A DNA stretch of 64,000 nucleotides, taken from assembly GCF_013167455.1 (NCBI RefSeq), contig NZ_CP038328.1. One strand, written 5' to 3'. The notes under the pieces are model-generated. The model saw only the letters and a program-made list of their open reading frames with translations, did not search any database and had not been told where the DNA came from. This DNA is from Escherichia coli O157:H7. GTDB taxonomy: Bacteria > Pseudomonadota > Gammaproteobacteria > Enterobacterales > Enterobacteriaceae. Position 1 is the first letter of the stretch, and the number at the start of each line of letters is the position of its first letter. Made by a program: the position numbers and the translations under genes. Below, in pieces: positions 38,266 to 47,134 of this stretch.

Positions 38266-39930
38266 TCAGGCTACCTTTTCGACAGAAACGTCGGCATCAG
38301 GGCGGGTCAGCGTCATCACCGACGCCAGTTTATTCAGGGTCTTGCCCAGTGTTTGCGGAATGGCGGTGGCGGCAACAAAGCGATCCGGGCGCATCACCAC
38401 CAGCGAAGCATTGTGTTGCGCGAACCAGCTACGCAGGCGACCTTGCGTATCCCCCACGCGTAGTACGCCGTCGTGGTTATCCTGTGCGGTATGAATTTGC
38501 ACTTCCGGCACCACCTGAATGAAGCGTGTGCTCAACGCGCGCCACTGCTGGATTTGCTCGTCGCTCATCCCCCACAGTGGATTGCATCCCCAGCCAATTA
38601 CCGCGAAGTTCGCGCCGATCGCGTTATCGAGCAGCGTCACGTCGCCGTTTTCCAGCGTGACTTTCGGCTGAATAAACATCTTGCCGACCGGAGAGTGCTT
38701 CGCTTCGCCCTCACGCACCAGCGCACCGCCGTAATATTGCGGCATCGGCTTGAAGCGCATTTCGAGGAAGTAGCGTTTTACTGGCGGCAGATAATTCAGC
38801 AGCCAGGAAACGCCGTCACGTAACGTACCCTGCCAGCGTTTCGGCGGAGCCAGCACGTTGCCCGCCGTCACGGACAGGTCAATCATCGCTTTGGCGTGAT
38901 CGCGACGTTCTTGTTGATAGGTATCGAGCAGCGCATCGCGGGCTTTCCCCTGGATAACCAACGCCAGTTTCCATGCGAGGTTAAAGGCGTCGCGCATACC
39001 ACTGTTATAGCCCTGCCCCTGCCATACCGGCATGATGTGCGCGGCATCGCCCGCCAGCAGTACGCGATCAATACGGAAACGTTGCGCCAGTCGCGCGTTG
39101 TGGGTGTAGACACGCTGGCGAATCAATTCAACATTGTCCGGATTAGGCAGCACTTTGCTTAACAGCTTGCGCATATTTTGCGGCTCACGCAGCTGTTCTT
39201 CGGTTTCTCCCGGCATCACCATAAATTCAAAGCGACGTACCGCATGAGGTAGCGCGGCAGAAACATACGGGCGCACCGGATCGCAACACAAATAGATATG
39301 CGGCGTACTTAACGGATCGTTGGCGATATCTACCACAATCCACTGATTTGGCGCAGTTTTACCTTCAAACGGCACATTCAGGGTGCGACGGACAAAACTT
39401 GCCCCACCATCACAGGCCACCAGCCACTGGGCTTTGACTATTTCCCGCAGCCCTTCTGCCGTTTTCAGGTGCAAGGTCACTTCGTCATCTTGCTGACTGA
39501 AGGCCTCCAGCTCGCGGGAAAACAAGCAGCGCACATTCGGAAAACGCGACACCCCTTCCAGCATCACCGCATCGACCTGCGGCTGAATAAAGGCGTTACG
39601 GCGCGGCCAGCCAAATTCATCGGTCATTGGCTGAATATCAGCAAAACAGCGGCCCTTCGGGGTGAGAAAACGCATCGCGTGCCACGGCGTAGTATGCGGC
39701 AGAACATTATCGACCAGGCCGACCGACTGCATGGTGCGCAGCGCCTCGTCATCAATACCAATCGCACGCGGGTAGTCGATCAACTTATCGAGTTTCTCCA
39801 CCACCAGCACGTCAATGCCCATCTGGCCGAGATAGTTCGCCATCATCAGCCCGACCGGACCGGCACCAGCGATCGCCACCTGAACGCTATGGTTAACAGC
39901 AGGCTGGATGTCAGGGTGTTGTATTGCCAT
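38266..39930 (-). CDS. mhpA: 3-(3-hydroxyphenyl)propionate hydroxylase (FAD monooxygenase)
   Basis: 554 aa with GAGPVG FAD-binding motif. Confidence 0.9.
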
Positions 39931-40071
39931 TTCAGTACCTCACGACTCGGACAAAATGCCGTTGCGCGCACAGTACAGCGCAACTTATTTTGTTAAAAAT
40001 ATGTAAATGATTTTTTATTGTGCGCTCAGTATAGAAAGGGTGTTTTCGGCTACAATCAAAACATGCCCGAA

Positions 40072-40088
40072 TGTGCACCAGGTGCACA
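40072..40088. promoter_or_regulatory. Near-perfect palindrome TGTGCACCAGGTGCACA in the mhpR-mhpA divergent region, a candidate MhpR/IclR-type operator
   Basis: Read directly; a second inverted repeat GTTGCGCGCACAGTACAGCGCAAC lies at about 39961-39984. Confidence 0.35.
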
Positions 40089-40120
40089 ACGTTGTTTTAA
40101 CTATAGAAATGTCAATTAAT

Positions 40121-40954
40121 ATGCAGAACAATGAGCAGACGGAATACAAAACCGTGCGCGGCTTAACCCGCGGTCTAATGTTATTAAATATGTTAAATAA
40201 ACTTGACGGCGGTGCCAGCGTCGGGCTGCTGGCGGAACTCAGCGGCCTGCATCGCACCACTGTGCGGCGACTGCTGGAGACGCTGCAGGAAGAGGGATAT
40301 GTCCGGCGTAGTCCCTCCGATGATAGTTTTCGTCTGACCATCAAAGTGCGGCAATTAAGCGAAGGATTTCGTGACGAACAGTGGATTTCTGCACTGGCGG
40401 CCCCACTGCTGGGCGATCTGTTGCGCGAAGTGGTATGGCCGACAGATGTGTCCACGCTGGATGTTGATGCAATGGTGGTACGCGAAACCACTCACCGTTT
40501 CAGCCGCTTATCCTTTCACCGGGCAATGGTCGGGCGGCGTTTACCGCTTCTGAAAACCGCCTCGGGCCTGACCTGGCTGGCCTTTTGCCCGGAACAAGAA
40601 CGCAAGGAATTAATCGAGATGTTAGCCTCCCGCCCCGGTGATGACTATCAACTGGCACGAGAACCGTTAAAGCTGGAAGCCATTCTGGCGCGCGCGCGCA
40701 AAGAGGGTTACGGACAGAACTACCGCGGCTGGGATCAGGAGGAGAAGATCGCCTCTATCGCCGTACCGCTGCGCAGTGAACAACGGGTGATTGGCTGTCT
40801 GAATCTGGTGTATATGGCGAGCGCAATGACCATCGAACAGGCAGCGGAAAAGCATCTTCCGGCACTACAACGGGTAGCAAAACAGATCGAAGAAGGGGTT
40901 GAATCGCAGGCTATTCTGGTGGCCGGACGGCGAAGCGGCGTGCATTTACGCTAG
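40121..40954 (+). CDS. mhpR: IclR-family activator of the mhp operon (277 aa; start at MQNNEQTEY)
   Basis: IclR-type HTH plus effector domain, divergent from mhpA. Confidence 0.9.
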   Translation: MQNNEQTEYKTVRGLTRGLMLLNMLNKLDGGASVGLLAELSGLHRTTVRRLLETLQEEGYVRRSPSDDSFRLTIKVRQLSEGFRDEQWISALAAPLLGDLLREVVWPTDVSTLDVDAMVVRETTHRFSRLSFHRAMVGRRLPLLKTASGLTWLAFCPEQERKELIEMLASRPGDDYQLAREPLKLEAILARARKEGYGQNYRGWDQEEKIASIAVPLRSEQRVIGCLNLVYMASAMTIEQAAEKHLPALQRVAKQIEEGVESQAILVAGRRSGVHLR

Positions 40955-41068
40955 TTACGCCAATGTGTAATTTGGCCCATTCTCATCGTTATTCGCCCAT
41001 TTGCCCACATGCACAGTACGGGCTGCACGCTACGCTAATGACATCAATACTGTGATGTGGAGCAAATC

Positions 41069-41845
41069 ATGAAAATTACGCAAATTCGTAATGCCACCCA
41101 AATTATCCAATACGCTGGCAAAACATTTCTTATCGACCCGTTACTCGCGCCTAAAGGAAGTTATCCGGGTTTTGCCGGAACGGCACGCGCAGAAATCCGC
41201 AATCCAACGGTAGAATTACCGTGCGATTTAACAACGTTACTCAACGTTGACGCCCTAATCGTGACCCATTTGCATGAAGATCACTGGGACGAAACAGCCT
41301 CCCGCGTCGTCCCTAAAGATAAACTGATTTATGTGCAAAATGAGCAAGATGCTGAATCACTGAATAAACAAGGATTTACGCATCTTACCGTACTTACCGA
41401 CGAGACTAAATTTGGCGATATTACTCTGCATAAAACGACAGGGCAGCACGGCTCCGATCGCACCTATGCCGACCCGGCGATGGCGAAGCGTTTAGGCGCA
41501 GCTTGCGGCGTTGTTTTCCAGCACCCGACAGAGAAAACGCTCTATCTGGCTGGCGATACCCTCTGGCGTGACGACGTCGAGGCTACAATGCTAACTTTCC
41601 AACCAGAAGTGGTTGTGTTGAATGCCGGATTTGCGCATGTTCTGGGGCATGGCGCGATAATTATGGGAGCAGAAGATATTCTCAAAACACATTTTACCCT
41701 CCCAGAAGCGCAAATTATCGCGACACATATGGAGGCCGTAAACCACTGTTTGCTGACGCGTGATGCGCTCAAGGAATACGCCAGAGATAATCAAATTATC
41801 GAATTTGTGAACGTACCAGAAGATGGTGAAACGTTGACATTCTAA
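41069..41845 (+). CDS. Metallo-beta-lactamase-fold hydrolase (about 258 aa), function unknown
   Basis: HxHxDH zinc motif THLHEDHWDE; GGAG RBS 6 nt upstream of the ATG. Confidence 0.75.
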   Translation: MKITQIRNATQIIQYAGKTFLIDPLLAPKGSYPGFAGTARAEIRNPTVELPCDLTTLLNVDALIVTHLHEDHWDETASRVVPKDKLIYVQNEQDAESLNKQGFTHLTVLTDETKFGDITLHKTTGQHGSDRTYADPAMAKRLGAACGVVFQHPTEKTLYLAGDTLWRDDVEATMLTFQPEVVVLNAGFAHVLGHGAIIMGAEDILKTHFTLPEAQIIATHMEAVNHCLLTRDALKEYARDNQIIEFVNVPEDGETLTF

Positions 41846-41864
41846 TTCGGAGATAAAGAGTGTT

Positions 41865-42818
41865 ATGCGCCCGCTAACTGTTGCCATTATCGCCGTTGCC
41901 GGTTTTAGTCCTTTTCACCTTTCCGTACCGTTTATCGTGTTTAGTGAAAAGATGGCGGAGAAAAAACGCTTTCACGTGATTATTTGCGCTGAAAAGCCGG
42001 GAAACGTGGACTCTGCCGATGGGTTTTCCGTAACCGCCACCCATGACTATACCGCAGTCATCCAGGCAGATATTGTGATAATTCCTTACTGGGGAACCAT
42101 TACACAAAAACCGCCACAAAAACTGCTGGAAGCCTTAACGACCGCACGGGATAACGGCGCACAGATTGTCGGGCTTTGCCTGGGCACGTTTGTGCTCGGC
42201 TATGCAGGTTTACTGAAAAATAAGCGTGCCGCCACGCACTGGGAGTTCGAGCGTGAATTTCAGGCACGTTTTCCACAAACACATCTGGATATTAACGCGT
42301 TGTACGTAGACGATGACGGCATTATTACCTCTGCCGGTACTGCCGCGGCGCTGGATTGCTGTTTGTATATTGTTCGGCAACATTTTGGCAGCGACTATGC
42401 TAACCATATTGCCCGACGGATGGTCGTACCGCCATATCGCACCGGCGGTCAGGCGCAGTTTATTGAGCAACCGGTGCCGAAAAATACCCATGATGAACGC
42501 ATAAACCTCCTGCTGGATTACCTGCGGCAAAACATTGCGCAACAGCATGATCTCGACTCGCTGGCGCAGCGAGTAATGATGAGTCGCCGCACATTAACTC
42601 GCCATTTTATGAAAGCGACCGGTTCGAGTATCGCCGAATGGCTCATTACTGAACGCTTACGCCGTAGCCAGGAACTGTTGGGATCCAGTCAGTTGCCCGT
42701 TGAGCGGATAGCGGCTGAGGTGGGTTTTCTCTCACCTGTGACCTGGCGTCAGCATTTTAAATCTCACTTCGGCGTCAGCCCCGCCGAATGGCGCAAAACC
42801 TTTCGCGGTATGGCATGA
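41865..42818 (+). CDS. GlxA-type AraC-family transcriptional regulator (DJ-1/PfpI-like N-terminal domain plus AraC HTH), 317 aa
   Basis: N-terminal class-I glutamine-amidotransferase-like domain with conserved Cys (GLCLGTF) and C-terminal AraC HTH. Confidence 0.8.
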   Translation: MRPLTVAIIAVAGFSPFHLSVPFIVFSEKMAEKKRFHVIICAEKPGNVDSADGFSVTATHDYTAVIQADIVIIPYWGTITQKPPQKLLEALTTARDNGAQIVGLCLGTFVLGYAGLLKNKRAATHWEFEREFQARFPQTHLDINALYVDDDGIITSAGTAAALDCCLYIVRQHFGSDYANHIARRMVVPPYRTGGQAQFIEQPVPKNTHDERINLLLDYLRQNIAQQHDLDSLAQRVMMSRRTLTRHFMKATGSSIAEWLITERLRRSQELLGSSQLPVERIAAEVGFLSPVTWRQHFKSHFGVSPAEWRKTFRGMA

Positions 42819-42819: not shown

Positions 42820-42854
42820 AGCGCCCGGAAGAGAGTCAATTCAGGGTGGTGAAT

Positions 42855-43937
42855 GTGAAACCAGTAACGCTATACGATGTCGCAGAGTATGCCGGTGTCT
42901 CTTATCAGACCGTTTCCCGCGTGGTGAATCAGGCCAGCCACGTTTCTGCGAAAACGCGGGAAAAAGTGGAAGCGGCGATGGCGGAGCTGAATTACATTCC
43001 CAACCGCGTGGCACAACAACTGGCGGGGAAACAGTCGTTGCTGATTGGCGTTGCCACCTCCAGTCTGGCCCTGCACGCGCCGTCGCAAATTGTCGCGGCG
43101 ATTAAATCTCGCGCCGATCAACTGGGTGCCAGCGTGGTGGTGTCGATGGTAGAACGAAGCGGCGTCGAAGCCTGTAAAGCGGCAGTGCACAATCTTCTCG
43201 CGCAACGCGTCAGTGGGCTGATCATTAACTATCCGCTGGATGACCAGGATGCCATTGCTGTGGAAGCTGCCTGCGCTAATGTTCCGGCGTTATTTCTTGA
43301 TGTCTCTGACCAGACTCCCATCAACAGTATTATTTTCTCCCATGAAGACGGTACGCGACTGGGCGTGGAGCATCTGGTCGCATTGGGTCACCAGCAAATC
43401 GCGCTGTTAGCGGGCCCATTAAGTTCTGTCTCGGCGCGTCTGCGTCTGGCGGGCTGGCATAAATATCTCACTCGCAATCAAATTCAGCCGATAGCGGAAC
43501 GGGAGGGCGACTGGAGTGCCATGTCCGGTTTTCAACAAACCATGCAAATGCTAAATGAGGGCATCGTTCCCACTGCGATGCTGGTTGCCAACGATCAGAT
43601 GGCGCTGGGCGCAATGCGCGCCATTACCGAGTCCGGGTTGCGCGTTGGTGCGGATATCTCGGTAGTGGGATACGACGATACCGAAGACAGCTCGTGTTAT
43701 ATCCCGCCGTTAACCACCATCAAACAGGATTTTCGCCTGCTGGGGCAAACCAGCGTGGACCGCTTGCTGCAACTCTCTCAGGGCCAGGCGGTGAAGGGCA
43801 ATCAGCTGTTGCCCGTCTCACTGGTGAAAAGAAAAACCACCCTGGCGCCCAAGACGCAAACCGCTTCTCCCCGCGCGTTGGCCGATTCATTAATGCAGCT
43901 GGCACGACAAGTTTCCCGACTGGAAAGCGGGCAGTGA
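42855..43937 (+). CDS. lacI: Lactose repressor, GTG start
   Basis: VKPVTLYDVAEYAGVSYQTVSRV... 360 aa. Confidence 0.95.
   Translation: MKPVTLYDVAEYAGVSYQTVSRVVNQASHVSAKTREKVEAAMAELNYIPNRVAQQLAGKQSLLIGVATSSLALHAPSQIVAAIKSRADQLGASVVVSMVERSGVEACKAAVHNLLAQRVSGLIINYPLDDQDAIAVEAACANVPALFLDVSDQTPINSIIFSHEDGTRLGVEHLVALGHQQIALLAGPLSSVSARLRLAGWHKYLTRNQIQPIAEREGDWSAMSGFQQTMQMLNEGIVPTAMLVANDQMALGAMRAITESGLRVGADISVVGYDDTEDSSCYIPPLTTIKQDFRLLGQTSVDRLLQLSQGQAVKGNQLLPVSLVKRKTTLAPKTQTASPRALADSLMQLARQVSRLESGQ

Positions 43938-44021: not shown

Positions 44022-47134
<3,113 letters not shown>

Follow-up and report, generated by a model that had tools for sequence, protein, structure and literature searches.

The 190 bp between mhpA and mhpR hold two palindromes, of which the first (40072-40088) is the already known operator of MhpR and the second (39961-39984) is not supported by its sequence as an operator in its own right. 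The chances are about even that palindrome 2 instead acts as an RNA stem-loop in the mhpA leader, after transcription initiation. The rival readings of palindrome 2 rank, in decreasing order, as a role purely as DNA in a CRP site, no function, a plus-strand terminator or insulator, and an operator of another factor. The region is a well-mapped textbook promoter pair, its strong palindrome is the published operator, and the finding is largely ordinary; the correction is that palindrome 2 should not carry an operator annotation, and a leader stem-loop tuning mhpA expression is a testable hypothesis.

In the window, the 64-kb stretch of DNA analysed here, mhpA (38266..39930, minus strand, start codon 39930..39928) and mhpR (40121..40954, plus strand, ATG at 40121, encoding 277 aa) are divergent, and 39931-40120 is precisely the spacer between them on the E. 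coli chromosome. Strain 2017C-4109 matches positions 39700-40400 at 100 % identity, and 4,896 out of 5,426 complete genomes contain the same stretch, with mhpA and mhpR as its annotated genes. This spacer is where divergent transcription of the E. coli mhp cluster is known to be controlled. On the far side of mhpR, the interval before lacI (41057-42818) contains genes for an MBL-fold hydrolase (262 aa) and a DJ-1/PfpI-AraC (GlxA-family) regulator (317 aa), with lacI at 42846-43937; in K-12, these two intervening genes are absent and lacI is 76 bp after mhpR.

Both palindromes are where the earlier note had placed them and the arms are 100 % complementary in each. Palindrome 1 is the 17-mer TGTGCACC-A-GGTGCACA (40072-40088), with 8-bp arms and a 1-bp centre. 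Perfect inverted repeats of this type (arms of at least 8 bp, spacer of no more than 3) occur 4 times in the 64-kb window vs 3.65 times in shuffles, and the number expected in 190 bp is 0.012. The published MhpR operator is GGTGCACCTGGTGCACA (Torres 2003, as given in Table 1 of PMC8222616), which is exactly the sequence of the mhpA-sense strand in K-12 and is matched by the window at 16 of 17 bases. The sole difference is the outermost base, a T for the first G, and it is this T that makes the operator a perfect 8+1+8 palindrome in this strain. Within E. coli, the outermost bases of the operator vary, with T, G, or C at one end (40088) and A or C at the other (40072); a base that is polymorphic in this way is probably not one that MhpR reads.

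Of 80 loci, from Escherichia to Pseudomonas, Azotobacter, and Nitrincola, 78 have the operator core, GTGCAC-N3-GTGCAC (40073-40087), ahead of their mhpR orthologue, 69 of them in exact form. The enteric loci and many of the others place it ~41 bp in front of the mhpR ATG (range 29-242 bp). The N3 spacer is free to change, with more than 10 different triplets among the orthologous loci, and the conserved hexamers about a freely varying N3 therefore give palindrome 1 the signature of a protein-binding site. Allowing up to two mismatches, the core is single copy in the 64 kb, besides an unrelated site at 46154. Palindrome 1 is the same site, in the same placement between mhpR and mhpA, as the MhpR operator at Pa (Torres 2003), which belongs to the IclR-family group with the motif GTNCG-N5-6-CGNAC. 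The published sequence and the core in the orthologous loci thus uphold the earlier suggestion that MhpR binds here; that MhpR protects the operator is reported by Torres 2003. The suggestion that CRP might do so did not hold, because although palindrome 1 has CRP-like ends there are 7 bases between them, not 6, and the axis has fewer than 6 of the 10 core positions.

The -10 hexamer of Pa is TATACT (40028..40033, minus strand), which is invariant in all of the enteric loci examined and in most of the Pseudomonas loci shown; some short-leader Pseudomonas loci have CCATACT in its place. The distance from TATACT to the operator centre is 47-52 bp in every enteric locus examined. From the position of this hexamer, the Pa start would be at about 40021-40022, the operator centre would be at about -58, and the mhpA leader in the window would be ~91-92 nt. 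The MhpR operator is reportedly centred at -58 of Pa, with CRP at -95.5, and the likely position in the window agrees with the former figure. A CRP-like core, TGTCA-N6-ATGCA (40110-40125, centre 40117.5), is centred 37.5 bp from the operator centre, within a candidate CRP site of Pa at 40107..40128 that overlaps the mhpR start codon. As this spacing is the gap between the reported -95.5 and -58, it lends the candidate site internal consistency. CRP control of the catabolic promoter through either palindrome, which had been proposed, is therefore not supported, the fitting CRP-like site being elsewhere. In the published mechanism, the IclR-family activator MhpR with bound 3-hydroxyphenylpropionate binds GTGCAC-N3-GTGCAC, with its centre ~58 bp upstream of the Pa start, and aids CRP at a weak site 37.5 bp further upstream, so that MhpR and CRP jointly activate mhpABCDFE. 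For 367.6-368.6 kb, there were no entries in the available part of the Cappable-seq supplement.

Two further features were seen around the operator. On the plus strand, 40072-40098 reads as a perfect hairpin, the MhpR operator, followed by ACGTTGTTTT, and was called by the terminator scan. If Pr starts near 40005-40040, this hairpin would be within the mhpR leader, in which case the operator might have a second role, as an attenuator-like structure or as a roadblock to mhpR transcription. In addition, an imperfect inverted repeat, CTACAATCAAAACA / TGTTTTAACTATAG (79 %; 40050-40063 and 40093-40106), flanks the MhpR operator off-centre and is strongly conserved in sequence between genera (TAAAACAACG ... 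GTTTTGATTGTAGC). This flanking repeat may make extra contacts with an MhpR tetramer, or may be the -35 region of Pa.

Palindrome 2 is GTTGCGC-N10-GCGCAAC (39961-39984), with 7-bp arms and a 10-nt spacer, which inverted-repeat search and folding present on the minus strand as an inner stem with a 10-nt loop. The 64-kb window has 86 perfect inverted repeats of this class (arms no shorter than 7 bp, spacer no longer than 12) vs ~50 in shuffles, a frequency at which 190 bp should hold 0.26. Palindrome 2 taken by itself is thus no more than chance would give, and its case rests on comparative data. A second inverted repeat, ACAAAAT/ATTTTGT (39951-39957 and 39987-39993), encloses palindrome 2 and was overlooked in the earlier note. 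The outer stem, an internal loop, and the inner stem together make up a 43-nt hairpin in the mhpA 5′ leader (39951..39993, minus strand); counted from the likely Pa start, the hairpin would run from about +30 to +72 and palindrome 2 from about +39 to +62. The hairpin folds with -16.7 kcal/mol (z -1.9) in the mhpA-sense direction and -18.2 kcal/mol (z -3.0) on the plus strand, and folding of the whole leader is unremarkable (z -0.46). Two conserved boxes bound the hairpin, TTAACAA on the 5′ side and, directly 3′ of it, the ribosome-binding block GTCCGAGTCGTGAGGT (39937..39952, minus strand), which includes the Shine-Dalgarno GAGG at 39938-39941 and is nearly invariant in Escherichia, Citrobacter, and Kluyvera.

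Other identities for the hairpin element were considered. There is a single copy of it per genome, which rules out a dispersed (REP-like) repeat. A cruciform is ruled out on geometry, by the short arms and 10-nt loop, and a CsrA site is ruled out by a loop that contains no GGA. The best scores of Rfam families on the element were 14-18 bits vs gathering thresholds of 37-101.

The arm sequence of palindrome 2 differs in Escherichia, Citrobacter, C. sedlakii, Kluyvera, Raoultella, and Klebsiella. The segment between the TTAACAA and GTCCGAG boxes nevertheless forms one end-to-end hairpin in every Escherichia, Citrobacter, Kluyvera, Raoultella, and Klebsiella sequence. The hairpin is kept in Escherichia, the Citrobacter freundii group, C. 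sedlakii, a divergent Citrobacter, two Kluyvera groups, Raoultella, K. pneumoniae, and K. michiganensis, with stems that are unrelated from lineage to lineage (GTTGCGC, AATTGC, GGCGG, GCGCG, GTGCC+GCGTC, TGCCTG, and AAATTGCC). Combining 11 lineage representatives gives a shuffle p for the whole hairpin of 4e-9 sense and 2e-7 antisense. These values are too favourable, since the lineages inherited the outer stem from a common ancestor; for the hairpin stripped of that stem, the combined p rises to 0.0017 sense and 1.3e-4 antisense. Taken lineage by lineage, the inner-core fold scores are mostly non-significant.

Escherichia and Citrobacter can be aligned unambiguously, and in this alignment 83 % of cells are paired vs 32-54 % when the partner column is slid. 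Three pairs are changed on both sides, for example from G-C to A-U with G.U intermediates, and the covariation score was reached by 2 out of 500 shuffles. There is therefore modest support for a conserved hairpin structure with compensatory changes, these changes being few evolutionary events. Among 17 E. coli sequences, five of the seven variable sites in the hairpin are at unpaired positions (p 0.055). A covariance model from Escherichia and Citrobacter found the orthologous site in C. sedlakii (E 2e-5) and K. michiganensis (E 8e-4); Kluyvera, K. pneumoniae, Raoultella, and the locus L084 were reached at E 0.2-9 only, with their inner stems placed in insertions, and the model is unsuited to counting inner-stem covariation. 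On a plain MAFFT alignment of the whole leader, RNAalifold did not recover the hairpin. It offered instead a structure in which the hairpin loop pairs weakly with the Shine-Dalgarno; this shows no covariation and was rejected.

On the mhpA-sense strand, there are 16 G.U pairs vs 8 A.C mismatches, and several Citrobacter (L004, L005, L006, and L012/L013), K. pneumoniae, and L084 have a good fold in the sense direction only. Several Kluyvera and C. sedlakii, however, fold better on the opposite strand, and the strand of the hairpin is therefore ambiguous. The hairpin is weak in C. gillenii and in L010. Taxa whose leaders are only 23-39 nt long (Edaphovirga, Pluralibacter, and many Pseudomonas) have no such hairpin, and Pa can thus do without it. 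An Escherichia-like mhpR-mhpA-lacI locus that is 86 % identical to the query (L089, Logan assembly ERR3985422) has a mutated operator (GGTGCTCCTGGTGGACA), a degraded hairpin, and no mhpR start codon; either the copy is decaying or the assembly is poor.

Were palindrome 2 to act as RNA, its arms would form the inner stem of the 43-nt leader hairpin, ending ~10 nt before the Shine-Dalgarno. Its role would then most likely be post-transcriptional: the hairpin could shield the 5′ region of the mRNA against attack by RNase, or alternatively could prevent base-pairing between the ribosome-binding site and the AU-rich leader upstream. A weak CRP site of Pr probably occupies the same DNA as well, off-centre. 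Stabilizing or insulating stem-loops in 5′ UTRs, such as the ompA leader hairpins, are comparable in that palindrome 2 is likewise a predicted stem-loop in a leader, just upstream of the ribosome-binding site, in which structure is kept while sequence drifts. Unlike these, the palindrome 2 hairpin would begin at about +30 and not at the extreme 5′ end, its strand is ambiguous, and several relatives do not have it. In phenylpropanoid biosensors built on MhpR and Pa, constructs that cut the leader at different points may differ in behaviour.

The strongest competing explanation, a tentative but serious possibility that is also compatible with an RNA role, is that palindrome 2 matters only as DNA, through overlap with a class II CRP site and the -35 region of Pr, with its dyad symmetry being incidental. 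Next to the hairpin is a conserved box, TGTTA-N6-TGTAA (39991..40006, plus strand), an ArcA-type direct repeat seen on the mhpA-sense strand as the invariant TT.ACAT....TTAACAA. In Citrobacter, the second half of the repeat is TGTGA. The TGTTA motif is retained in all enteric loci, including those without the hairpin, which speaks for the DNA-only reading. On the plus strand, TGtTAAAAA (39991-39999) is a plausible candidate for the extended -10 of Pr, and the Pr start site would be near 40005-40013. The candidate class II CRP site of Pr, AAATGCCGTTGCGCGCACAGTA (39954..39975), overlaps the left arm and the loop of palindrome 2. In K-12 the site reads AAATGTCGTTGCGCGCACAGTA, which scores highest among the CRP-like 16-mers of that spacer. 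With its centre (39964.5) 29.5 bp ahead of the candidate -10 hexamer, the site has the geometry of class II promoters. All 18 Escherichia sequences share GCACA, the better of its two half-sites, and differ elsewhere in the loop.

CRP is said to act on Pr at -40.5, in class II fashion. Reg-Seq annotates CRP at -59..-38 of mhpRp2 and an ArcA-like site near -10/-20, with ArcA and GalS enriched on mhpRp2 in its mass spectrometry, and mhpR expression is raised in an arcA ihf double mutant. The layout in the window, 39954-39975 followed by the ArcA-type repeat at 39991-40006, fits the Reg-Seq statements for CRP and ArcA as well as the -40.5 position, and the ArcA-type repeat fits anaerobic repression of an oxygen-dependent pathway. 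It is probable from these positions that a weak CRP site of Pr overlaps palindrome 2 off-centre. The conserved box at 39988-40009 was also considered as the CRP site of Pr and is less likely, being a direct and not an inverted repeat.

As at class II CRP promoters, where CRP is near -41.5, the CRP-like 22-mer is at the right distance from the candidate extended -10. The match is weak, however, with 6/10 core positions in the window and most E. coli and 7/10 in K-12. The left half is TGCCG in the window and TGTCG in K-12, owing to position 39959, where the window has C but K-12 and three other genomes have T, the T giving the more CRP-like half. The site is also confined to Escherichia; Citrobacter, Kluyvera, and Klebsiella have no CRP-like equivalent of 39954-39975 but keep the hairpin. 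In addition, the CRP-like axis is 8 bp from the axis of palindrome 2, therefore palindrome 2 itself is not what CRP would read, and the start site of Pr on which the geometry depends is itself deduced from the candidate -10.

That palindrome 2 has no function is unlikely. The inverted repeat would then have arisen by chance, with hairpin-templated mutation preserving or recreating it in a spacer that evolves fast. The expectation of 0.26 such repeats per 190 bp, the mostly non-significant inner-core scores within lineages, and the several relatives without a hairpin are all in keeping with this, as is the gain of perfect complementarity in some lineages in the style of quasi-palindrome correction (L007). 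Chance accounts less readily for five genera having a hairpin in one and the same position, flanked by the same pair of anchors but built from unrelated stems, and for combined p values that stay low in both directions once the shared outer stem is removed.

It is improbable that palindrome 2 is a plus-strand intrinsic terminator or insulator, which would halt transcription running antisense through mhpA ahead of Pr. The plus-strand stem is followed directly by TTATTTTGTT, and the plus-strand fold is equal or better in Escherichia, several Kluyvera, and C. sedlakii. Antisense transcription of mhpA is real, as a Rho termination region antisense to mhpA is reported at 369,964 on the minus strand of MG1655 (~38577 in the window, plus strand; Adams et al. 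2021, supplementary file 2); being inside mhpA, this region shows that antisense transcription runs through the gene towards the spacer. However, palindrome 2 was not called by the terminator scan, its 10-nt loop exceeding the 3-8 nt limit of the scan, and the curated Term-seq lists for MG1655 have no 3′ end labelled mhpA or mhpR. The same Citrobacter loci that fold well in the sense direction only (L004, L005, L006, and L012/L013), together with K. pneumoniae and L084, are weak on the plus strand, with z ~0. The T-tract is accounted for by the conserved TTGTTAA box, which is kept where the hairpin is missing.

The earlier note had offered palindrome 2 as an operator, whether for MhpR, CRP, or a second factor. 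It has no GTGCAC-type half-sites and no sequence shared with the MhpR site, and its axis has fewer than 6 of the 10 positions of TGTGA-N6-TCACA, so neither MhpR nor CRP is supported as reading it. The only further protein with evidence in the spacer is NtrC, for which gSELEX-chip in vitro gave a K-12 peak in the mhpR/mhpA spacer at 88 % of the maximum and a peak at mhpC-mhpD at 71 %. The NtrC box TGCACCAnnnTGGTGCA, at up to three mismatches, has three matches in the window and none in 39931-40120. Both of its half-sites (TGCACC/GGTGCA) are the arms of palindrome 1, although 1 bp apart there vs 5 in the box, and palindrome 2 bears no resemblance to it. The supplements of Reg-Seq, PredCRP, Footprint-seq, and the NtrC study contain no mhp rows. 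An operator of a second dimeric transcription factor is most improbable: the perfect 7-bp arms and an NtrC peak somewhere in the spacer speak for it, but the arms are not conserved between genera, differing in each one, unlike palindrome 1, and palindrome 2 would lie downstream of the Pa start, within the Pa transcript.

Long mhpA leaders of 200-370 nt were found in Pseudomonas and Zobellella (L026, L027, L031, L032, L035, L036, L040, L043, and L051) and in enterics (L082, L083, and L090), those in Pseudomonas being unannotated. Scans of nine loci matched no Rfam family, and the long leader may be an undescribed leader or attenuator. It is quite unlikely that the hairpin of palindrome 2 is a real cis-regulatory RNA element of this kind, as a reduced form of the longer Pseudomonas and enteric mhpA leader; were it so, the mhp operon would have a further, undescribed layer of control after initiation besides MhpR and CRP, through attenuation or mRNA stability. 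The first feature of the long leaders is a short reading frame close behind the Pa start, for example MRHACLPSLPVACALPYPSVAPRR and MNNYLYLHRN..., and in Shimwellia (L021), where the leader is 82 nt, a 16-codon frame overlaps the mhpA ATG. Between the short frame and the Shine-Dalgarno, the long-leader loci have conserved hairpins with at least one compensatory change (CTCTTGC/GCAAGAG vs CTCCTGC/GCAGGAG).
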